Positions 4,755 through 13,957 of a stretch of 37,748 nt of DNA are shown one piece after another. A model generated the notes under the pieces. It had not been told where the DNA came from and did not search any database. It saw only the letters and a list, made by a program, of their open reading frames with translations. Made by a program: the position numbers and the translations under genes. Origin of the DNA: a virus; IMG/VR virus record IMGVR_UViG_3300026198_000003; one strand, written 5' to 3'. The first letter of the stretch is position 1, and every line of letters starts with the position of its first letter.

Positions 4755-5316
4755 CCCCGACCCCGCCGCCATGCGGGCCGCCTACGAGGCCGGCGCGAGC
4801 ATCGAGAAAGTCCGGCAGCAGTTCGGCGTCTCGTATCCGCGGGCCCGGAAGCTCCTGCTCGAGGCCGGCACGGTCCTCCGCCCACCGAAGGGCGGCACGA
4901 CGGGGGCGATGCAGACGAACAGCGCCGAGCGGTCGCGCCGCGTGCTCGAAGTGCTGAAGCTCATGCTCAGGGGCATCGACCGCCACGCGATCCACAAACA
5001 CGGCAACGACGACCTCGGGTGGGGCGTCGACCTCGGGACCATCAACGCGTACATGATCGACGCCCGCACCGAACTCAAGGCCCGGTACGCCGACACCGTC
5101 GACGAACTCGCCGCGATGGCGGACGCCCGGGACGACTACGCCCGGCAGCGGGCCCTGGCCGTGGACGACGTCAAGACGTTTCACAGCATCAACACCGAAG
5201 CCAACAAGCGCCACGGGCTGTATCCCGCGCAGAAGATGGAGCACGCCGGGCCGGGCGGGACCGAACTCGTGATCCGGTTCGTCGACGCGCCGACGGGGGA
5301 TAATGCAGACGATTGA
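4738..5316 (+). CDS. terS: Terminase small subunit (HTH N-terminus)
   Basis: Sits immediately upstream of and overlapping TerL. N-terminal HTH (ASIEKVRQQFGVSYPRARKLLLEAG) followed by a helical oligomerisation-type region. Confidence 0.6.
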   Translation: MIGSSDPDPAAMRAAYEAGASIEKVRQQFGVSYPRARKLLLEAGTVLRPPKGGTTGAMQTNSAERSRRVLEVLKLMLRGIDRHAIHKHGNDDLGWGVDLGTINAYMIDARTELKARYADTVDELAAMADARDDYARQRALAVDDVKTFHSINTEANKRHGLYPAQKMEHAGPGGTELVIRFVDAPTGDNADD

Positions 5317-7471
5317 AAAACAGGTCGCCCGCATCCCCAAGTTCGGGCGGTGGCTGGACAGCAGGACCGAGCGGATCCTCGTCGTGTACGGCGGGGCAGG
5401 CTCGGGCAAGTCCTTCGCCGTCGCGCAGCACGTCTGCCATCTGCTCCTGACCGTGCCGGACATCCGGATCGCCGTGATCCGCAAGACCCTGCCGGCGCTC
5501 CGCATCACCGCCTATCGGCTCATCCTCGACACCCTGCGCGCGTGGGGCGTGCCGTTCGCGCACAACAAGTCCGAACTGCTGATCACGGTCAACGGCTCGG
5601 AGATCCTCTTCAAATCACTGGATGACCCGGAGAAGATCAAGAGCGCCGAGTTCAACCTCGTCTGGGTCGAAGAGGCGACCGACATCGAGCGCGAGGACTT
5701 CCTGCAGTTGAACCTCCGGCTCCGGCGGGCGGGCGCGCGGCCCAACCAGATCATTCTCACCTTCAACCCGATCGACGCCTACCACTGGGTGATAACCGAC
5801 CTCGTCCAACAGGAGCGGCCGGACGTGGCCGTCCTGCACTCGACCTACAAGGACAACCCGTATCTCGACGCCGACTACACGCGGCAACTCGAGGACCTGG
5901 TCAACCAGGACGAGAACTATTACCGCATCTACGTGCTCGGCGAGCCCGGCGTATTGCGGAACATCATCTACTCGAATTGGACCGTGGCGCCGGCGCCCGC
6001 GGCCCGGCCGACGGATCGGTATTACGGGCTCGACTTCGGCCACACCAACCCGTCCGCGCTCGTCGAGGTCTGCCTCCACGGCGAACAGACGTTCGTCTCG
6101 GAGCGGCTCTATCAGACCCACCTCACCAACGCCGACATCATCGGCCGGCTGAAGGAGCTGGTCGTGCCCGGCTCCATCATCTATGCCGACGCGGCCGAGC
6201 CGGCCCGGATCGAGGAGATCAAGCGGGCCGGGTTCCGGTGCCTCGCGGCGGACAAGAGCGTGAAGGACGGTATCGACTACGTCAAGCGGATCCGGCTGCA
6301 CATCGACCCGGCGTCGGCCAACCTCATCAGCGAGATCCGGGCGTACAAGTACCGCGAGGACCGCGGCGGGCGCGTCCTCGAGGAGCCCGTGAAGTTCAAC
6401 GACCACCTCTGCCTGACCGCCGACACGCTCATCGAAACGACCGAGGGCCAACTATGGATCAACCAGATCAAACCGGGAATGGAGGTGCTCACCTCCGATG
6501 GCTACCACGAGGTGCTCGCGGCGGGCAGAACCGGATATACACGAGACCTCCGATGGCTCTTCACCGATGACGGTTTCTGCCTCAAAGGGACGCCCGATCA
6601 CCCCGTTCTGACAGGAAACGGAACCTTTATGCCAATAGACGCCCTACGATATGGTGACTACGTATGGCGGTTGAAAGGGAATCCGTTGTGTTCAACGGCG
6701 TGGAGTTCCGGCGCTATCCCAACAGCAAGCGCCGGCCGGATCGCGTCTATTACCGACCCTCTGCAAACCACATCCGGGCGGGAGTCGGACACCTCCACGT
6801 CGAGATCTGGAAGGCCGCCCACGGGCCGATCCCCGACGGGCACCACATCCATCACATCGACGGCGACCCGCTCAACAATTCCGTCGATAATCTCGCGTGC
6901 CTTCCGGGGCACGACCATCTCTCCTGGCATCAACAGAACTCCGACCCCGCCCTCGCCGAATGGCGGCGCGGACACCTTGCAAATATCCGCCCGCTCACCG
7001 TCGGCTGGCACCGATCTGACGAGGGGCGGGAATGGCACCGCGAGCACGCCCGGCAGGTCGTGGACAACCTCGCTCCGGCGGATTTTGTCTGCGAGCATTG
7101 CGGGGCAACCTATCAACGGCTCCCCGTCGGGCAGCACCGCTTCTGCTCGAACGCGTGCAGGTCTGCGGCCCGCCGCGCCTCCGGTGTGGATAACGTCGTG
7201 CGGCGGTGTGACTGTTGCGGCGCCGGATTTGAGGTTAACCGATATTCCAAGGCCCGCTATTGCTCCAAGTCGTGTGGAATGCGTGCGTCTTGGGCGGCTC
7301 GAAAGGCCCGTCCCGGTCTATAACCTGACCGTCGACGGCGCTCACAACTTCTTCGCCAATTCTATTCTCGTACACAACTGCGACGCGACACGCTACGCGC
7401 TCTACACCCACGCCAAGCGCGGGAGCGGTGCCGGCCGGTTCGGCGTCGTCTCAGGAGTTCGATCATGGTAG
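5303..7471 (+). CDS. terL: Terminase large subunit precursor (PBSX/Terminase_3-like) interrupted by an intein
   Basis: Walker A VYGGAGSGKS, Walker B LVWVEEA, nuclease motifs GLDFG and DAAEP, and DHL|CDATRYA split by a 323-codon insert. Confidence 0.9.
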   Translation: MQTIEKQVARIPKFGRWLDSRTERILVVYGGAGSGKSFAVAQHVCHLLLTVPDIRIAVIRKTLPALRITAYRLILDTLRAWGVPFAHNKSELLITVNGSEILFKSLDDPEKIKSAEFNLVWVEEATDIEREDFLQLNLRLRRAGARPNQIILTFNPIDAYHWVITDLVQQERPDVAVLHSTYKDNPYLDADYTRQLEDLVNQDENYYRIYVLGEPGVLRNIIYSNWTVAPAPAARPTDRYYGLDFGHTNPSALVEVCLHGEQTFVSERLYQTHLTNADIIGRLKELVVPGSIIYADAAEPARIEEIKRAGFRCLAADKSVKDGIDYVKRIRLHIDPASANLISEIRAYKYREDRGGRVLEEPVKFNDHLCLTADTLIETTEGQLWINQIKPGMEVLTSDGYHEVLAAGRTGYTRDLRWLFTDDGFCLKGTPDHPVLTGNGTFMPIDALRYGDYVWRLKGNPLCSTAWSSGAIPTASAGRIASITDPLQTTSGRESDTSTSRSGRPPTGRSPTGTTSITSTATRSTIPSIISRAFRGTTISPGINRTPTPPSPNGGADTLQISARSPSAGTDLTRGGNGTASTPGRSWTTSLRRILSASIAGQPINGSPSGSTASARTRAGLRPAAPPVWITSCGGVTVAAPDLRLTDIPRPAIAPSRVECVRLGRLERPVPVYNLTVDGAHNFFANSILVHNCDATRYALYTHAKRGSGAGRFGVVSGVRSW
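6410..7378 (+). mobile_element. Intein (Hint domain halves) inserted in the TerL nuclease motif
   Basis: Starts CLTADTLIE (block A), has GTPDHPVLT (block B), and ends VYNLTVDGAHNFFANSILVHN followed by +1 Cys 7379-7381. It is in frame with TerL at 969 nt. Confidence 0.85.
6664..7323 (+). CDS. HNH endonuclease ORF nested inside the intein in a different reading frame
   Basis: HHIHHIDGDPLNNSVDNLACLPGHDHLSWH HNH motif, plus CEHCG..FCSNAC and CDCCG..YCSKSC zinc ribbons. Coding-type GC3. The ATG lies inside the Hint-N codons for GDYVW and the TAA lies inside the block F codons. Confidence 0.8.
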   Translation: MAVERESVVFNGVEFRRYPNSKRRPDRVYYRPSANHIRAGVGHLHVEIWKAAHGPIPDGHHIHHIDGDPLNNSVDNLACLPGHDHLSWHQQNSDPALAEWRRGHLANIRPLTVGWHRSDEGREWHREHARQVVDNLAPADFVCEHCGATYQRLPVGQHRFCSNACRSAARRASGVDNVVRRCDCCGAGFEVNRYSKARYCSKSCGMRASWAARKARPGL

Positions 7472-9441
7472 CACGAATCATACAGGGCGATTGCCTCGAC
7501 GTCATGCGCGAGATGGAGCCGGCGAGCGTCGACGCCATCGTGACCGATCCGCCGTACGGCCTCAACTTCATGGCCCGCGACTGGGACCACGGCGTGCCCG
7601 GCGAACGCTACTGGATCGAGGCGCTGCGAGTGGCGAAGCCCGGCGCCCATCTGCTCGCCTTCGGCGGGACGCGGACCTTTCACCGGCTGACCTGCGCGAT
7701 CGAAGATGCCGGATGGGAGATCCGCGACTGCCTCGGCTGGATCTATGGCTCGGGCTTCCCGAAGTCGCTCGACGTCTCGAAGGCTATCGATAAGGCAAAC
7801 GGGCGCCGATTTGAAGATCGGTACGCACTCGGGCGACATATCCGTCAGATGCGAGAGGCCGCCGGACTGTCCCGCACCGATGTCAATGCGTGGTTTGGGT
7901 ACGTCGATGGTTGCGAGCATTGGGAGCGGCAGGATCCCCACGGTGCCCGCGTTCCGACATCGAGCGATTGGGCGATCCTGAAGGGGCGTCTCGAGCTCTC
8001 TGACGAGTTCTCCCCGCTCGTCGAGCGCGCAGAAGCCGAGCGCGAGAAGATCGCATCTGTGAACGGATCGCGCCTCGCCGTTGCGCCCGGACAAGGGGCT
8101 GATCGGGGGGCGTGCGCTCTCGACATCACCGCCCCAGCGACCGACGCGGCCCGCGAGTGGTCGGGATGGGGCACGGCCCTGAAGCCGGCAGTCGAGTACG
8201 TCATCATGGCGCAGAAGCCGATTGGAGGTGAAAGGGAACAGTATATAACAGTTGGGAACCTATATAAAGTAGAGGTTCGGCTGTGGTTACTGTTACGTGC
8301 GAGTGTTGCGGGCGAGAGTTCGACGTTAAGCCCGGACGAGTACGGCGAGGCGTTCGCTTCTGCTCAATGGACTGCCTCAGAACTGCAAAGTACACTGGCA
8401 GATTTACGCGATCTGACGGATACGTCGCGGTTAGAGTCGGCGATACGTACGACCTTGAACACCGTGTCGTCATGGCGGAGCACTTGGGAAGAAGCCTTGA
8501 GCCGTGGGAGCAGGTTCATCACCGAAACGGCAACCGGGCCGATAATCGACTCGAAAACCTTGAACTCCTCAGCGTCGGCGCTCACACCGCAAGACATCAT
8601 CCGGGCCGCGATTCTTCGACCTGGCTCATGGTGGAGTGCCATACCTGCGGCAAACATTTTGAACGCCGCCGCCACGAGGATGCGCGGCACCCTCGACATT
8701 TCTGCTCTAGAGAGTGCTATCGAAAAGGGGCACATCTCACGCCCGGGCGGTCTCGACCCGACCGTCTCGTTTAGGCCGATCATCCTCGCCCGCGCACCGC
8801 TCGCCGGCACCGTCGCCGCGACCGTCTGCGAGCACGGGACAGGGGCGCTCAATATCGACGCCTGCCGGGTTGCATCGGACGATGACACAACGACACGTCA
8901 CAACTCCTCCTCCTCCTCCTATATGACGGGGCGGATCGGGGAGCGGCAACCGATCCAAGAGACGTATACGACGGGCAGCACGTTCGGCCGATGGCCCGCG
9001 AACCTGATCCACGACGGCAGCGACGAGGTTGTCGACATCTTCCCGATGCAGTCGGGCGGCGGGCAACCGAAGCGGCGCGGTGAGGCGGCGATGCAGAAAT
9101 CATATAGCGGGTTCGCCGGGGGGGATGCTACGCCCGGCGTCGGCCGTTCGTCCGGTTCGGCGGCCCGGTTCTTCTACTGCGCGAAGGCGTCGAGAGCGGA
9201 GCGCGGCGAGGGCAACGTTCACCCGACGGTCAAGCCGCTCGCGCTCATGCGCTACCTCTGCCGGCTCATCGCGCCGCCCGGCGGGCTCGTCCTCGACCCG
9301 TTCGCCGGCTCGGGCTCGACCCTGATCGCCGCCGTCGCCGAGGGCTTCGAGGCGGTCGGGATTGAGAGAGAGGCGGCATACGCTGAGATCGCCCGGCAAC
9401 GGTTCGGGCCGCTCGACCAATTCGCTGAGGCTACACCATGA
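7465..9441 (+). CDS. DNA methyltransferase (N6-A/N4-C, beta-class order), interrupted by a ~550 bp insert
   Basis: IVTDPPYG (motif IV) lies near the N-terminus, with NVHPTVKP and [10 protein letters not shown] (motif I) near the C-terminus. The ATG overlaps the end of TerL. Confidence 0.85.
8221..8775 (+). mobile_element. HNH-carrying insertion within the MTase gene (not an intein; host frame stays open)
   Basis: MTase-like sequence stops after EYVIMAQKP (8220) and resumes at [14 protein letters not shown] (8773). GC is locally lower (tatataaca, tatataaag). An HNH ORF sits in another frame. Confidence 0.6.
8283..8774 (+). CDS. HNH endonuclease ORF nested out of frame in the MTase gene
   Basis: GTG start with GAGG 7 nt upstream. 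[12 protein letters not shown]...[25 protein letters not shown] motif, with CECCG..FCSMDC and CHTCG..FCSREC ribbons. Confidence 0.8.
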
Positions 9442-10592
9442 AACTGAGAGACCGTATCAGACAACTCGTCGCGGGCCCCAAACCACAGCCCAAGGCGGCG
9501 GCATCGAGCGGCACCCGGCCGGACTACTTCCGAAAGTCGACGCGCGACACAGCGACGATGGCCCGGAACGCGGCGATCTACGAGTCCGGCGGGATCGTCA
9601 CGGCCGCCATCAAGGCGCCGGGGAGAACCGTCCTGTCGAACGGCTGGCGGCTCGACGGCGAAGAGGGCGCGGTCAAGCAGGTGCAGGCGGTCATCGACGC
9701 GATCGACTTCGAGACGCTGGTGTCCATGCTCGTCGATTACGCCTACGTCCACGGCAATGGGTTGGCCGAGATCGTCCCGTTGCGCGGCGGCGGGCTGACC
9801 GTCCAGCTCCGCGACCCGGCCCGGTTCCGGATCGAGCAGGACGCCTGGGGCAACATCGTCGGGTATCGGTTCGTGCAGGAAGACACGTTCGACGACTCCC
9901 GCGGCCCCCTGCTCCTGCCGGAGGAGATGATCGACCTCAACCTCGACCCGGTGCCGAACTCGCCCTACGGCCGCTCCCTCGTGTCCGTCTGCATCGACGA
10001 GATCCTGAGAGATGCCAAGACCAACGAAGGGCTCGCGAAGGCGATCGAGAGGCATGGATTCCCGAAGTACCATGTCGGCGTCGGGCAACCGGGCGAACAG
10101 GTGCCGGAGGCGGACCTGGAGGGGCTGCGGAAAGAGTTCGAGAACCTCAGCAGCAAGAACGAGTTCATCACGGGCCCCGACATCAAGATCTCGACAATCG
10201 ACGCGACGGGGATCAACAACTCGTCCCAACTCGACAACGTCTTTTCGTCCCGGCTCTGCGCCGCGCTCGGCGTGCCGCCCGAACAGATCGGGCTCGACGC
10301 GACGGGATCGACGGAGGCGACAGCGAACGTCCGGTTCAGGGCGTGGTACGACCGGATCGCGGCCCTCCAGCGCGTGATCGCGACGACCCTCAGCCGGCAA
10401 CTCTTCGACCGGATCACGGGCCGACCCGGCGCCTGCTGGATCGTCTTCGAGGACCCGTCGCCGGAGGACATGGCGAAGAAAGCCGAATGGATCGCGAAGA
10501 TCATGGCCGCGACGCCGATGGACCCGTTCGCCGTGCTGCCGCAGGAGTGGATTCAACAGCAGTTCGGCATCGACCCGACGGGGGCGGACTGA
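9438..10592 (+). CDS. Portal protein
   Basis: 384 aa. Positioned after the terminase/MTase genes and before the MuF-like gene. Composition and length are portal-like. ATGA coupling to the upstream gene. Confidence 0.75.
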   Translation: MKLRDRIRQLVAGPKPQPKAAASSGTRPDYFRKSTRDTATMARNAAIYESGGIVTAAIKAPGRTVLSNGWRLDGEEGAVKQVQAVIDAIDFETLVSMLVDYAYVHGNGLAEIVPLRGGGLTVQLRDPARFRIEQDAWGNIVGYRFVQEDTFDDSRGPLLLPEEMIDLNLDPVPNSPYGRSLVSVCIDEILRDAKTNEGLAKAIERHGFPKYHVGVGQPGEQVPEADLEGLRKEFENLSSKNEFITGPDIKISTIDATGINNSSQLDNVFSSRLCAALGVPPEQIGLDATGSTEATANVRFRAWYDRIAALQRVIATTLSRQLFDRITGRPGACWIVFEDPSPEDMAKKAEWIAKIMAATPMDPFAVLPQEWIQQQFGIDPTGAD

Positions 10593-10595
10593 CCC

Positions 10596-11357
10596 GTGTG
10601 CTCCCGCTGCCTCGCGGCATCCTTCCGGCCGAAGACGGACCCGACGATGAGCCGGAAGATCGAAGCCCGGTACGAACGGCTCTTGCTCCCGCTGTTCGAC
10701 ACCTTCGAGCGGAAGGCCGTCGCCGCGTTCGAGTCGCACGCCCGCGAACTGGCCGCACCCGTCGTCGGCATCGACCTCGAATGGCTGCGGGTGTGGCTGG
10801 ATAAGACGATCGAGGAGGTCGTCATCAAGCCGTCGCGGGAGAAGCAAGGGGAGATCGTCAAGCGGGCGTACCGGCAGGGCGTGACATGGGCCGACACCAA
10901 CCTCGCGGCGCTCACCACCGGCGCGAAGCTGACGCCGGGCCCCATCGACTGGCGGGCGCTCGACGTGCTGAAGGCCCGGAACGTCTCGGCGCTCAAGGGC
11001 GTCACCGACGAGATGGGCAAGCAGATCATCGCCTCCCTGACCGAGGGGCTGATGGGGGGCGAGGGCGTCCCGAAGCTGGCCCGGCGGATCGCCGAGCGGG
11101 TCGACGCCATCGGGCGGACGCGGGCCGAGACCATCGCGAGGACGGAAACGATGTACTGCGTGAACGAGGGCTCGAAGATCCGGTATGCACAGGCCGGCGT
11201 CTCGAAGATCCGCATTCTCGTGGGTCTTGATGAACGCACCTGCGGCGAGTGCGAGCCCCTGCACGGCAACGTCTACGAGATCGGGTCGGAGCCACAACTC
11301 CCCATACATCCCCGGTGCCGCTGTTGCTACTCGCCTGTTGTGGAGGTGCCGAAGTAA
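10596..11357 (+). CDS. Minor head protein (SPP1 gp7 / Mu F-like)
   Basis: The C-terminal pattern RTRAETIARTE...DERTCGECEPLHG...PIHPRCRC is typical of the Phage_Mu_F family. The start is GTG 10596 or ATG 10647. Confidence 0.8.
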   Translation: MCSRCLAASFRPKTDPTMSRKIEARYERLLLPLFDTFERKAVAAFESHARELAAPVVGIDLEWLRVWLDKTIEEVVIKPSREKQGEIVKRAYRQGVTWADTNLAALTTGAKLTPGPIDWRALDVLKARNVSALKGVTDEMGKQIIASLTEGLMGGEGVPKLARRIAERVDAIGRTRAETIARTETMYCVNEGSKIRYAQAGVSKIRILVGLDERTCGECEPLHGNVYEIGSEPQLPIHPRCRCCYSPVVEVPK

Positions 11358-11566
11358 TGGCATCCGGCAAACCGCTCCATGCGGTCGAGAAGCGCGTGAT
11401 TGAGCAGATGCAGGATGAGAAGTTCCCGGCCATCATCGCCCGGCACCTGACCATGAACTACTCGCAGTACAACGGGGGCAGCCGGGCCACGTCGACCGTG
11501 CAGGCGTATATCCGCACCCTCCGGCGCGCGGCCGAGAAGAAGGCTCAGGTTAAAAAGATTGCTTAA
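11357..11566 (+). CDS. Hypothetical small basic protein
   Basis: The ATG overlaps the upstream TAA. 69 aa. Last gene before an AT-rich terminator/promoter gap. Confidence 0.5.
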   Translation: MASGKPLHAVEKRVIEQMQDEKFPAIIARHLTMNYSQYNGGSRATSTVQAYIRTLRRAAEKKAQVKKIA

Positions 11567-11633
11567 ATATAGTTTTCATCTTTTCCTCTGAGTTAACCAA
11601 ACTCAATTATTAGCCAAAGAATCAAATATCTAC
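11567..11633 (+). promoter_or_regulatory. AT-rich gap with oligo-T tracts (terminator-like) and a TATA-like box AATTATTA (11605-11612) about 25 nt upstream of ATG 11634
   Basis: gttttcatcttttcc T-runs come first, then a TATA-like box. There is no SD before ATG 11634, which fits a leaderless-type late promoter. Confidence 0.5.
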
Positions 11634-12509
11634 ATGCCCGGCGACGAACCGTCACCCGATGACCGAACGTTCCGCCGCGAGCTCCTCTTCGAACTCCCTT
11701 CTTCTTCCAATCTCGAACGCTCCGGTGACGCCCTGATCGTTCGTTCGGTAAAGCTGCTGGCGGCCGGGACGTGGACCGACAGCGCGGCCAAGACGCCGTG
11801 CTCGTACGGCACCGACGCCCTCCGCGAGTACGCCGGGAATTGGGCCGACTCGTCCCTCTGGTCACGGCACGCGGGCGGACAGCCCCGGACCATCAACCAG
11901 AAGGTCGGCCGGATCGAGAGCCCGCGCTTCGAGGATGACGCCGTGGTCGGCGACCTCGTCCTGCACGGGCTCCCGGGCACGGATTCTCCCGGCGCCATCG
12001 CGATGATCGAGGCCGGCGAGGCGGACTACTTCTCCGCCGAACTGACCGGCACCGAGCGGTGGAACGCCGAGCGGAAGCTGTACGAGATGCAGTCGATCAC
12101 GTTCCTGGGCGGCGCGGTCGTGAACCGCGGCGCCTGCTCGACGTGCACCCTGCGCCACAATGAATCCGGAGAGGAGCCGGGCGAATCGCCCGCGGCATGT
12201 GCGACAGACGACCCCACAGAGGACACTATGACAGCAGAACTTGAGGCAAAGATTGCCGAACTCGAAACCGCCAACGCGGACCTGGTCCGCCAGCTTGGCG
12301 AGGCAACGGAGACGAACACGAAGATCGCGGCCGACGTGGACGCGCTCCGCGACGAGATGCGCGAGCTCGAGGGCATCAAGGCCCGCCTGCTCAAGATCGA
12401 GCAGACGCCGCTCCCGAAGGCCGGCGCCCCCGCCGAGCCGGCGCGTGAGCTCTCGGTCCCGTCCGGGCTCGTGATCACGAAGACCGAGATTTACCGGGAG
12501 GTCCAGTAA
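11634..12509 (+). CDS. Prohead protease (HK97/S78-like) fused to a coiled-coil scaffold region
   Basis: SRHAGG...VGRIES..FEDDAVVGDLVL...GEADYFSAEL resembles the S78 His/Ser blocks. The C-terminal half is a heptad-like E/L/A-rich coiled coil. It lies upstream of the MCP. Confidence 0.65.
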   Translation: MPGDEPSPDDRTFRRELLFELPSSSNLERSGDALIVRSVKLLAAGTWTDSAAKTPCSYGTDALREYAGNWADSSLWSRHAGGQPRTINQKVGRIESPRFEDDAVVGDLVLHGLPGTDSPGAIAMIEAGEADYFSAELTGTERWNAERKLYEMQSITFLGGAVVNRGACSTCTLRHNESGEEPGESPAACATDDPTEDTMTAELEAKIAELETANADLVRQLGEATETNTKIAADVDALRDEMRELEGIKARLLKIEQTPLPKAGAPAEPARELSVPSGLVITKTEIYREVQ

Positions 12510-12980
12510 ATGGCAAACACAATCCCGGTCGGATTCGACCCCAAGCCCCGGCGCATCGGCGTCACGGGCACGTACATCGCCGCGAGCACGATTCTCGCGG
12601 GGCAGATCGTCGCGTTCGCCGCGAGCGGTGTGAGCAGGACCGTGGCCCCCGCGACCTCGTCCCTCGGCTCGCCCGTCGGCGTGGCCGCCTACGGCGCTGC
12701 CGCGGGGGAGTCGTTCCTCGTCTACGGCAACGGCTGCGAGGTCAAGGTCGAGCTCTCCGCCGACAACGGCACCGCCGACGCGGGCGACTGGCTCGGCGTC
12801 TCGACCGTCGCCGGCTGCGCCATCGTCCAGGACGGCGCGATCGCCGCCCACAACAGCGAGGGCACCGGCCTCTTCCCGATCGGCCAGTGCCAGGAAGACA
12901 TCGCCGCCGGAGCCTCCACCGTTGGCGGGAAGGGCTACGTCCTGCTGAACATGTCGCCGATCTGGACGGCGGCAACGTAA
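12510..12980 (+). CDS. Head decoration-type protein (DUF2190-like)
   Basis: Lies between the scaffold and MCP genes. The patterns ILAGQIVAF..SPVGVAAYGAAAGESFLVYGNG are typical of this small beta-protein family. Confidence 0.55.
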   Translation: MANTIPVGFDPKPRRIGVTGTYIAASTILAGQIVAFAASGVSRTVAPATSSLGSPVGVAAYGAAAGESFLVYGNGCEVKVELSADNGTADAGDWLGVSTVAGCAIVQDGAIAAHNSEGTGLFPIGQCQEDIAAGASTVGGKGYVLLNMSPIWTAAT

Positions 12981-12991
12981 GGTGACATGAC

Positions 12992-13957
12992 ATGACACAA
13001 CTTTTCAAGACCTACGCGAAGATCGGCCTCGAAGAGCCGAACGGCCGCGCCCTGCAGCGCATCGTCGAAACCATCCCGCGCGAACTCGGCACCGTCTACG
13101 ACGGCAAAATCGAGCCCGTCCGCGAACTGCTCCTCTCGACCGCGATCGAGTCGACGACCCTGCTCCAGACCGAGATGCACGCGACCGTGCTCGAGGGCGC
13201 GGAGCCGTGGAAGTGCATGCGGCAGGCGTGCACCGTCCTGCCCATGAAGGCGAACACCCTGACGATCCCGGTCGGCGAGGTCGGATCGTACGCTCCGGAA
13301 GTCGCGGAGGGCGCCGAGATCCCGATCAGCGATCAGGATTACACCGCCGTGACGCTGACCGCGAAGAAGTACGGCGTCCGCCCGATGATCACGGACGAGA
13401 TGGTCGCGGACGCGCTCTATCCCGTGATGGAGATGGAGATCCGGAAGGCCGGGGCCAAGCTCGAGAACACCCTGAACCAGATCGCCCTGACCAACCTGAT
13501 CGACAACACGTCGGCGAACGAGCACGACGCCTCAGGCTCGAACCTCGGGATCAAGGCGATCGCCACGGCGATAAAGCTCGTCAAGGCCGACGGGTTCATT
13601 CCGGACCGGATCGTCCTGCACCCCGACGCCGAGGCGCTGATCATGGCCGACTACATCCCCACGGGATACGTCGGCGCCGAGGCCGCGCAGAGCGGCAAGC
13701 TGCCGAACCTGCTCGGTCTCTCGCCGTTCATCACGAACGTGGCCGACGCCTCCTCGCAGACGTGGGAGTACAACAGCGACGGCGACATCGGGATGGTCGT
13801 CTTCGACTCCGGCAACTCGACCGTCATCGGTGAGCGGCAGCCGATCACGATCAAGCGGTACGAGGACATCGTCCGCCAGCTCCAGGGCGGGACCGTCTCG
13901 GCCCGGTGGGCCGTCGGCACGCTCCAGGCGAACGCGGGCTCACGCATCGAGTACTGA
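12992..13957 (+). CDS. Major capsid protein (HK97 fold)
   Basis: 321 aa in the canonical position. The sequence pattern (LTAKKYGVRPMITDEM, IVLHPDAEALI) is typical of HK97-family capsid proteins. Confidence 0.85.
   Translation: MTQLFKTYAKIGLEEPNGRALQRIVETIPRELGTVYDGKIEPVRELLLSTAIESTTLLQTEMHATVLEGAEPWKCMRQACTVLPMKANTLTIPVGEVGSYAPEVAEGAEIPISDQDYTAVTLTAKKYGVRPMITDEMVADALYPVMEMEIRKAGAKLENTLNQIALTNLIDNTSANEHDASGSNLGIKAIATAIKLVKADGFIPDRIVLHPDAEALIMADYIPTGYVGAEAAQSGKLPNLLGLSPFITNVADASSQTWEYNSDGDIGMVVFDSGNSTVIGERQPITIKRYEDIVRQLQGGTVSARWAVGTLQANAGSRIEY

Follow-up and report, generated by a model that had tools for sequence, protein, structure and literature searches.

In a stretch of viral DNA of 37,748 nucleotides (IMG/VR record IMGVR_UViG_3300026198_000003, referred to in full as the window), the gene for the terminase large subunit, terL, is interrupted by an intein, and over the linker of this intein lies a complete HNH gene of the homing-endonuclease type in another reading frame. 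The two very probably form a bipartite selfish element, in which a splicing-competent Hint scaffold, that is, a mini-intein, is read in the terL frame while a separate HNH gene is laid over its linker. The window has a G+C content of 66% and many long spurious open reading frames (ORFs), and therefore an open frame alone carries little weight in it.

The terL ORF has no internal stop, and Pfam places Terminase_3 at amino acids (aa) 24-214 and Terminase_3C at aa 244-370 of its product. A first-pass annotation of the window had TerL cut after KFNDHL by 323 codons (6410-7378), and an intein-less allele confirms the borders exactly: a search of 5.8 billion proteins returned a TerL of 399 aa, P0001, which is 96% identical, is without exactly codons 370-692 and reads KFNDHL/LDAARYA at the junction. 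Its contig, L012, is 93.9% identical to the window in extein DNA; the empty site there reads AACGACCACCTG/CTGGACGCGGCA, in a stretch that includes GTGAAGTTCAACGACCACCTGCTGGACGCGGCACGCTACGCG, and the occupied site in the window reads CACCTC, then 969 nucleotides (nt), then TGCGACGCGACA. The insertion site lies within the conserved DH/xDAxRY motif of TerL, and in the N-extein alignment D367 is invariant and H368 nearly so. The Cys+1 codon is TGC (7379-7381), the intein-less allele having Leu there, and on splicing CDATRYALYT would restore the conserved DAxRY motif.

The insert has the anatomy of a class-1 intein, as the annotation had proposed, with blocks A, B, F and G and the Cys+1 all present (Table 1). 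When the linker is taken out, the joined Hint halves align over their full length with solved inteins and an intein-like domain (2lwy, E 2e-5; gp41-1, NrdJ-1 and DnaB), which upholds the assignment of both halves. In an AlphaFold2 (AF2) model of the 722-aa precursor, the terminase domains and both Hint halves reach a predicted local distance difference test score (pLDDT) of 72-90, and the Hint halves are beta-rich. The linker between them had been described as a stop-free string rich in S/T/P/G/R without a recognisable fold, and this is what is seen: it holds 0 stops, 75% of aa 460-650 are S/T/P/G/R/A compared to 36% in the N-extein, and its pLDDT is ~25. Its sequence is dictated by the overlapping HNH gene. 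Protein splicing of the terL precursor would be expected because TerL is essential and sequenced phage genomes, which we take to be those of isolates, carry the same layout.

Table 1. Features of the terL intein, of the HNH gene inside it and of the adjoining methylase gene, in window coordinates
Feature	Position	Strand	Description
terL precursor ORF, Terminase_3 family	5303..7471	+	722 codons and stop; reads through the intein and the overlapped HNH gene
N-extein, aa 1-369, ending ...KFNDHL	5303..6409	+	ATPase domain and most of the RNase-H-like nuclease domain; Pfam
Intein, aa 370-692, 323 aa, class-1 type	6410..7378	+	Cys1, block B TxxH, blocks F and G, terminal HN
Hint N-terminal half, aa 370-459	6410..6679	+	AF2 pLDDT 72-86; matches to solved inteins
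Block A, CLTADT	6410-6427	+	Cys370 is intein position 1, in CLTADTLIE directly after KFNDHL
Block B, GTPDHP	6587-6604	+	TxxH is T430-P-D-H433; conserved in relatives
HNH start context	6653..6666	+	weak Shine-Dalgarno-like GGTGA (6653-6657), then ATG 6664-6666
HNH homing-endonuclease-type gene	6664..7323	+	219 aa and TAA; frame 3 (-1) of terL, wholly inside the intein
terL-frame linker, aa 460-650	6680..7252	+	stop-free, predicted disordered, AF2 pLDDT ~25
HNH catalytic core	6796..6930	+	H45, H63, H64, D66, N71, N72, N76, H85 invariant; H89 nearly so
HNH motif HIHHIDGDPLNNSVDNL	6844-6894	+	sequence inspection
Two CxxC...CxxxC zinc ribbons	7090-7158, 7207-7275	+	C143/C146/C161/C165 and C182/C185/C200/C204, all invariant
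Hint C-terminal half, aa 651-692	7253..7378	+	AF2 pLDDT 73-84
Block F, VYNLTVDGAHNFFAN	7316-7360	+	Hint C-terminal half
HNH stop TAA	7321-7323	+	made from the terL block F codons TAT AAC (Y-N)
Block G, ILVHN	7364-7378 (7364-7381 including Cys+1)	+	ends His-Asn, then C693
C-extein, aa 693-722 and stop	7379..7471	+	begins CDATRYALYT
N6_N4 DNA methylase ORF	7465..9441	+	read through an HNH_3 ORF
Hidden HNH_3/zinc-ribbon ORF	8283..8774	+	frame 3 of the methylase; GTG start, GAGG 8-9 nt upstream

Blocks B and F enclose the HNH ORF, whose frame is one base behind that of terL. The complete protein with an HNH motif and two ribbons that had been read at 6664..7323 is borne out by Pfam, whose sole hit is HNH_3 (PF13392; E 1.7e-14, 53.6 bits against a cut-off of 24.8), and both ribbons could be located. 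We take HNH_3 to be the Pfam family for phage homing endonucleases such as I-HmuI. Across 227 homologues the HNH family has 24 invariant columns, which include the catalytic H, D and N residues and the 8 Cys, and residues H63, H64, D66, N71, N72, N76 and H85 are the same in all 33 homologues aligned. The AF2 model of the product, made with these 33 homologues, has a mean pLDDT of 93.6. A phmmer search of the protein against PDB sequences returned nothing meaningful. From its sequence, the protein would act as a site-specific nuclease or nickase.

As had been noticed from the letters alone, the HNH ATG lies within the GDYVW codons of the Hint N-terminal half (6653-6667), where it spans the terL codons GTA TGG (V-W), and the TAA lies within block F codons; the latter holds in 8/8 compared copies. 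The HNH frame has a stop of its own just upstream, TGA at 6655-6657, which sits in GGTGA and leaves 6 nt (CTACGT) to the ATG. Among 59 embedded relatives the start codon is ATG in 53 and GTG in 6, the HNH-frame stop upstream of it lies at a median of 12 nt and within 60 nt in 49/59, and Shine-Dalgarno-like cores precede the start in 58%, compared to 21% of background windows. Strong Shine-Dalgarno sequences stand in Clostridium phage phiCDHM19 (AAAGGAG) and Rhodobacteraceae phage LS06 (GGAGGG).

Because the upstream stop is near the ATG, the start is conserved and Shine-Dalgarno-like cores are enriched, internal initiation of the HNH gene would fit these sequences better than frameshifting. 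A Hint-HNH fusion made by programmed frameshifting, with ribosomes leaving the terL frame for the HNH frame and perhaps returning, seems highly improbable to us, even though the shift required is -1, as is usual in programmed slippage, and the HNH frame of Tetrasphaera phage TJE1 is open for ~90 codons upstream of its ATG. The 6 nt left by the TGA in the window hold no slippery heptamer, the near stops, the conserved ATG or GTG and the enriched cores of the relatives speak for a separate start, and a shifted product would end at the HNH stop in block F and so never give spliced TerL.

A further motif was seen upstream of the HNH start in AT-rich relatives (L030, L050, L051, L069, L033, L044 and L016), in which TGATATAAT or something similar stands ~15 nt before the HNH ATG. 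It is extended -10-like, ends 3 nt from the ATG, holds the HNH-frame TGA and coincides with the terL codons G-D-I-I. An internal promoter with a leaderless HNH mRNA was considered for it but looks unlikely, as the 3-nt spacing seems too short and the motif follows the terL codons G-D-I-I.

Base composition separates the frames in the window. The G+C content at third codon positions (GC3) of the terL frame is ~0.9 in the N-extein and up to 6440, then 0.57-0.85 in the Hint N-terminal half, and from ~6680 to 7280 it is the HNH frame that combines the highest GC3 (0.75-0.85) with a low G+C content at second positions. The openness of the terL frame is unremarkable in the window copy taken alone: synonymous permutation puts the probability of 0 terL-frame stops at 0.30, and resampling with the codon usage of the window puts it at 0.10; the significance therefore rests on relatives.

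These relatives are numerous. In nine TerL homologues of ~700-740 aa the site holds an insert equal in size to that of the window, and no HNH domain is in frame there. Contigs were fetched for three of them (GC 0.61, 0.34 and 0.46); each has a complete HNH homologue that is offset from terL as in the window, and terL stays open through it. In a tblastn search of GenBank phages the same layout was found in Tetrasphaera TJE1, Clostridium phiCDHM19, Acinetobacter Highwayman and Rhodobacteraceae LS06-2018-MD07, in all four of which it is annotated as one "terminase large subunit" gene. Layout and frame offset (HNH = terL + 2) are the same in all 7 relatives studied in detail. The terL frame has 0 stops in 8/8 embedded copies and 8-12 in three free-standing homologues, and the probability of 0 stops is 0.0003 or less in each of four AT-rich copies (L002, L003, L005 and L008).

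A scan of IMG/VR with the HNH alignment returned at least 419 relatives, the best 80 loci of which were analysed. The HNH+1 frame is open in 64 of these 80, nearly all of which show a long ORF (typically 720-860 aa if the contig is complete) that ends in block G, ...HN/C(x)DAxRY; the strict block G pattern was found in 52 loci, and most of the other tails show block G. Removal of near-duplicates left 60 distinct embedded copies with a GC of 0.28-0.66 and 12,217 codons, in which 0 host-frame stops were observed compared to ~368 expected from non-embedded relatives; the remaining frame contains 942. Relatives differ from each other at 0.47-0.77 of HNH third positions but at 0.25-0.56 of first and second positions, and they are 29-62% identical in the HNH frame as opposed to 12-42% in the host frame. 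The HNH frame is under selection at the protein level, and the terL frame is selected only against stops.

This bears on the alternative that the first-pass annotation had set beside an overprinted gene, namely that two compensating sequencing or assembly indels disguise a canonical in-frame HNH intein. The window alone cannot decide this, given the probability of 0.10-0.30 for its stop-free terL frame. The same offset in 7 relatives and in 64/80 IMG/VR loci from unrelated samples and projects, four phage genomes among them, makes it exceedingly improbable, as do the stop 2 codons ahead of the HNH ATG and the HNH stop inside block F codons that the terL frame needs. In none of the 80 loci do both Hint halves share their frame with the HNH. 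The indel alternative can thus be set aside, while the other half of the proposal, an HNH gene overprinted in a mini-intein with the host frame serving as linker, is sustained by the conserved layout across GC 0.28-0.66, the codon-position signal and the predicted folds.

One locus shows a broken version. In the 2005 sequence of Clostridium phage phi CD119 (L011, 1500-2700), a close relative of phiCDHM19, stops occur in both the terL and the HNH frame across the intein, and the region is annotated as a truncated terminase and a hypothetical ORF; this copy is either decayed or affected by old sequencing errors.

For the bipartite element in the window we propose the following cycle. Ribosomes would read the terL frame from 5303 to 7471 to give a 722-aa precursor, in which the Hint halves (aa 370-459 and 651-692) would fold together round a disordered loop of ~190 aa that need only be stop-free. 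Class-1 splicing through Cys370, the TxxH, the terminal His-Asn and Cys693 would cut out 323 aa and join ...KFNDHL to CDATRYA..., restoring the terminase nuclease motif. Translation started separately at ATG 6664, in frame 3 of terL, would give the 219-aa HNH_3 nuclease with its two zinc ribbons, and this enzyme would most likely cut or nick intein-less terL at or near the candidate site AACGACCACCTG/CTGGACGCG. Repair from the occupied allele would then copy intein and HNH gene together, which amounts to homing. As terL is essential, a terL-frame stop anywhere across the HNH gene would be lethal, so that two layers of selection would act on the same DNA, one on the amino acids of the HNH frame and one against stops in the terL frame.

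Several observations weigh against such an element. The Pfam Hint and intein scores on the full precursor stay below the curated cut-offs (Intein_splicing on aa 374-692 scores 30.9 bits, under its 35.8). Foldseek finds no significant neighbour for the whole HNH model, the best relevant one being I-HmuI at E 0.43, and the ribbons are weakly similar to YacG-type ribbons; the absence of a global match probably stems from an elongated multi-module protein. The Shine-Dalgarno sequence before ATG 6664 is weak (GGTGA), a sigma-70 promoter scan of 6300-7500 found no site, and the open terL frame is, in the window copy alone, unremarkable. Nor was a closely related intein copy found in a divergent extein, the intein of the nearest intein-bearing relative being about as divergent as the extein. 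Lastly, free-standing relatives of the HNH gene stand beside terminase genes, which is also the place of packaging-associated HNH proteins.

Some of these points would suit an inactive relic, that is, an HNH ORF without homing inside a mini-intein that still splices round a long loop. Homing-cycle theory predicts decay of the endonuclease after fixation, and the weak GGTGA start context, the lack of a predicted promoter and the lack of a near-identical intein in another extein agree with it. We consider a relic unlikely: the ORF is intact and keeps all 24 family-invariant residues, differences from the closest relative, L001, are 0.29/0.25/0.47 at codon positions 1/2/3, as under purifying selection, and the 96%-identical intein-less allele coexists in metagenomes, which fits an ongoing cycle of gain and loss. 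Intein-less TerL alleles occur at 96%, 81% and 75% identity, and the nearest intein-bearing TerL has only 56% extein identity. Recent transfer is suggested solely by this disjunct presence and absence. GC3 drops inside the intein relative to the extein. As to the carrier, blastn in distant mode with terL and with 9438-13957 gave no match among 50,697 phage records, and a scan of genome contigs with the N-extein found relatives at 50% identity or less only, so that no host was assigned.

The neighbourhood of free-standing homologues raises another alternative, in which the HNH protein is a terminase-associated packaging nuclease or nickase tucked inside terL and not a homing enzyme. Free-standing homologues adjoin terS/terL in Acinetobacter BP10, Lactobacillus CL2 and Exiguobacterium EauM-23, and zinc-ribbon HNH endonucleases are encoded next to cos and terminase genes in many phages, according to one report (PMC3592412). 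Such a role is distinctly unlikely for the gene in the window. TerL relatives at all three identities given above are without both intein and HNH gene, which makes the latter dispensable, and the sequence available for L012 and L013 has the portal gene immediately after terL and contains no HNH gene. In addition, the gene is always found at one conserved terL site, where it is enclosed by an intein, separates two intein halves or interrupts terL itself, a pattern that marks a homing element. Pfam places it in HNH_3, although the structural match to I-HmuI is weak (E 0.43).

The terL site is occupied in several other ways. A mini-intein without HNH is found at the same site in P0100. A split layout is seen in L007 (CL2, 506-2750), L052, L065, L067, L076, L085/L087, L090 and L092: TerL-N with Hint-N (CLTGDT...) stops, the HNH gene comes next in varying relative frames, and a short ORF with Hint-C (...NGGFIVHN/C) and the C-extein opens at or inside the HNH 3' end. 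In L065 and L076 only Hint-C was seen, the L076 locus starting inside the HNH gene, and in CL2 the Hint-C ORF is unannotated. From their sequences, these appear to be natural split inteins whose halves are separated by an HNH gene. In Exiguobacterium vB_EauM-23 (L010, 1026-3210) terL stops right after the conserved ...NNH motif, and a free-standing HNH homologue follows ~210 nt on; the C-extein that terL is missing (CDATRYAME...) is encoded further downstream in a different frame, and no Hint sequence can be seen. An intron, a fragmented gene or a fault in the annotation or the sequence could each account for this layout. A relaxed-threshold Rfam search of the EauM-23 insert found nothing.

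EauM-23 also lends something to the idea that the insert in the window is removed at the RNA level, as a group I or group II intron with an HNH ORF and incidental intein motifs, since here the HNH gene interrupts terL at the same site without a recognisable Hint, and HNH_3 genes are often intron-borne. No Rfam family was found at the gathering threshold in the window and 11 related loci, a negative that is weak alone, as large ORF-bearing introns can escape covariance models. The terL frame is, however, open across the insert, which would be needless for an intron, and the insert is bordered by a full set of intein blocks (A, B, F and G, with Cys1, His-Asn and Cys+1) that match solved inteins. 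We would give removal as RNA hardly any credence.

Taken as stages at one terL site, there are thus a mini-intein, a free-standing HNH gene, an HNH gene interrupting terL without Hint, a split intein and an overprinted intein. Together these forms fit a free-standing endonuclease gene that invaded either a mini-intein or the bare site, with two ways to keep TerL working, namely to split the intein or to keep the host frame open. For the overprinted element, the probable origin is a mini-intein at the site that was invaded by a free-standing HNH gene residing beside terL.

The first-pass annotation had been aware of no description of the arrangement, but descriptions are in the literature. Gosselin, Arsenault and Gogarten described actinophage inteins, in TerL and other hosts, whose endonuclease is antisense or out of frame (bioRxiv 10.1101/2025.01.02.630785). 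In one type an endonuclease VII-like gene (IPR004211) lies "in frame 3 relative to the intein", as in Keitabear, Sedona and Affeca, and the authors propose that a free-standing endonuclease gene invaded the intein; their survey is limited to PhagesDB actinophages, and the architecture is called rare. When translated, the supplementary sequence of Keitabear shows Hint halves, a linker rich in S/T/P/R and an Endonuclease_7-type ORF of ~135 aa (CxxC...VDHDH...) in frame 3. These inteins resemble that of the window in the stop-free, structureless linker, in the complete same-strand nuclease ORF in frame 3 and in their proposed origin by invasion. They differ from it in the nuclease, which is of Endonuclease_7 type and ~135 aa instead of HNH_3 with two ribbons and 219 aa, and in the Hint lineage. 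In contrast to a rare type, the terL family is broad, occurring in phages of Actinobacteria, Clostridia, Acinetobacter and Rhodobacteraceae, with the embedded state in the majority.

Two further systems from the same laboratory are close. Arsenault et al. (Genes 2025, PMC11855218) described the ShiLan domain, in which a phage DNA methylase gene conceals an HNH in its frame 3. This domain shares with the terL element an HNH_3 with zinc ribbons in the third frame, a stop-free host frame and a start of its own a few codons in. The ShiLan insert, however, has no splicing domains and is thought to stay as a loop of the methylase, whereas the terL element has complete Hint halves and would be expected to be excised. 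Phillips et al. (bioRxiv 10.64898/2026.09.14.751524) reported a widely distributed cyanobacterial DnaX intein with a LAGLIDADG endonuclease in an overlapping frame, which is similar in the purifying selection on the endonuclease frame, the relaxed host-frame linker and the secondary invasion of a mini-intein, but has a cellular host gene (dnaX) and a LAGLIDADG enzyme in place of phage terL and HNH. Non-canonical inteins with an endonuclease in another frame or strand are traced to Gorbalenya 1998, as cited in both preprints (10.1101/2025.01.02.630785 and 10.64898/2026.09.14.751524).

Dassa et al. (2009, PMC2677866) found fractured genes in which a free-standing endonuclease gene stands between the halves of a split intein; the genes found were GIY-YIG and Vsr-like, HNH being only predicted. 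The host gene is broken in two in these, whereas terL of the window is a single unbroken ORF; the CL2 and IMG/VR relatives with the split layout do match. Canonical HNH inteins likewise interrupt the host protein at a conserved catalytic motif and combine a Hint scaffold with an HNH nuclease, but with the HNH in frame, while that of the window has a separate frame with stops of its own at 6655-6657 and 7321-7323. With I-HmuI-type enzymes the HNH protein shares Pfam HNH_3, the expected site-specific nicking or cleavage of the uninterrupted allele and a weak structural match (E 0.43); it differs in being carried by an intein instead of a group I intron, and in having two zinc ribbons as C-terminal DNA-binding modules. 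The element in the window is thus a published architecture with a different nuclease family and not an undescribed arrangement.

A second case of an HNH gene hidden in another frame lies next to the first. The methylase ORF that follows terL in the window contains an HNH_3/zinc-ribbon ORF. This HNH shares 51% identity with the one hidden in gp65 of Mycobacterium phage ShiLan and 65% with the one that the methylase of Cylindrospermopsis phage Cr-LKS3 harbours. All three methylases are homologues, and the insert occupies the same place in each. The insert at 8283..8774 fits the description of a ShiLan domain, and that of terL, with its complete Hint halves, does not. A conserved methylase motif is doubled, with one copy at each insert border (~8185..8235 and ~8800..8850), and the duplication is seen as well in ShiLan gp65 (L099; KPSYEPVCVAVKP...AFEPIVVARKPLAGTVA) and Cr-LKS3 g59 (L098). 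It looks like a diverged target-site duplication or a partial gene duplication carried with the element. In L012 and L013 there is no methylase, and terL is overlapped by the same 7 nt with a portal-like gene, the homologue of the one at 9438.. in the window; in L014 the position of the methylase is taken by a ParB-like gene. The junction of terL and portal seems to be a hot spot for inserted cassettes.

The overprinted nuclease is always in frame 3 (host frame = nuclease frame + 1) and never in frame 2, in the window, in L001-L005, L008 and L009, in the 64 IMG/VR loci, in ShiLan and Cr-LKS3 and in the Keitabear intein. In the three free-standing isolates the +1 frame has 8-12 stops as opposed to 13-37 in the +2 frame, and the totals in 14 non-embedded IMG/VR relatives are 80 in +1 and 267 in +2. 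Frame 3 may be the cheaper frame to open.

What the survey adds to the published cases is that the arrangement is common and phylogenetically broad, and that the constraint on the host frame can be demonstrated statistically. A broader reading, for and against which we find the case evenly balanced, is that the HNH_3/zinc-ribbon family represents a very widespread, undescribed lineage of TerL inteins in which overprinting in frame 3 is dominant and selected. It is drawn from the relatives in IMG/VR, from phages of Actinobacteria, Clostridia, Acinetobacter and Rhodobacteraceae and from the literature searched, in which no link of the TerL of TJE1, phiCDHM19 or Highwayman to inteins was found.

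In TJE1, phiCDHM19 and Highwayman, TerL is annotated as one long protein and the nuclease gene inside it is unannotated. Gene callers and intein surveys that consider in-frame domains only will miss such nucleases and label the inteins as endonuclease-less. For the "splicing first" model, according to which free-standing endonuclease genes invaded mini-inteins, the terL family offers unusually complete material at one site. It also demonstrates that an essential gene can stay readable through a foreign gene in another frame for ~200 codons, with the absence of stops as the sole visible constraint.

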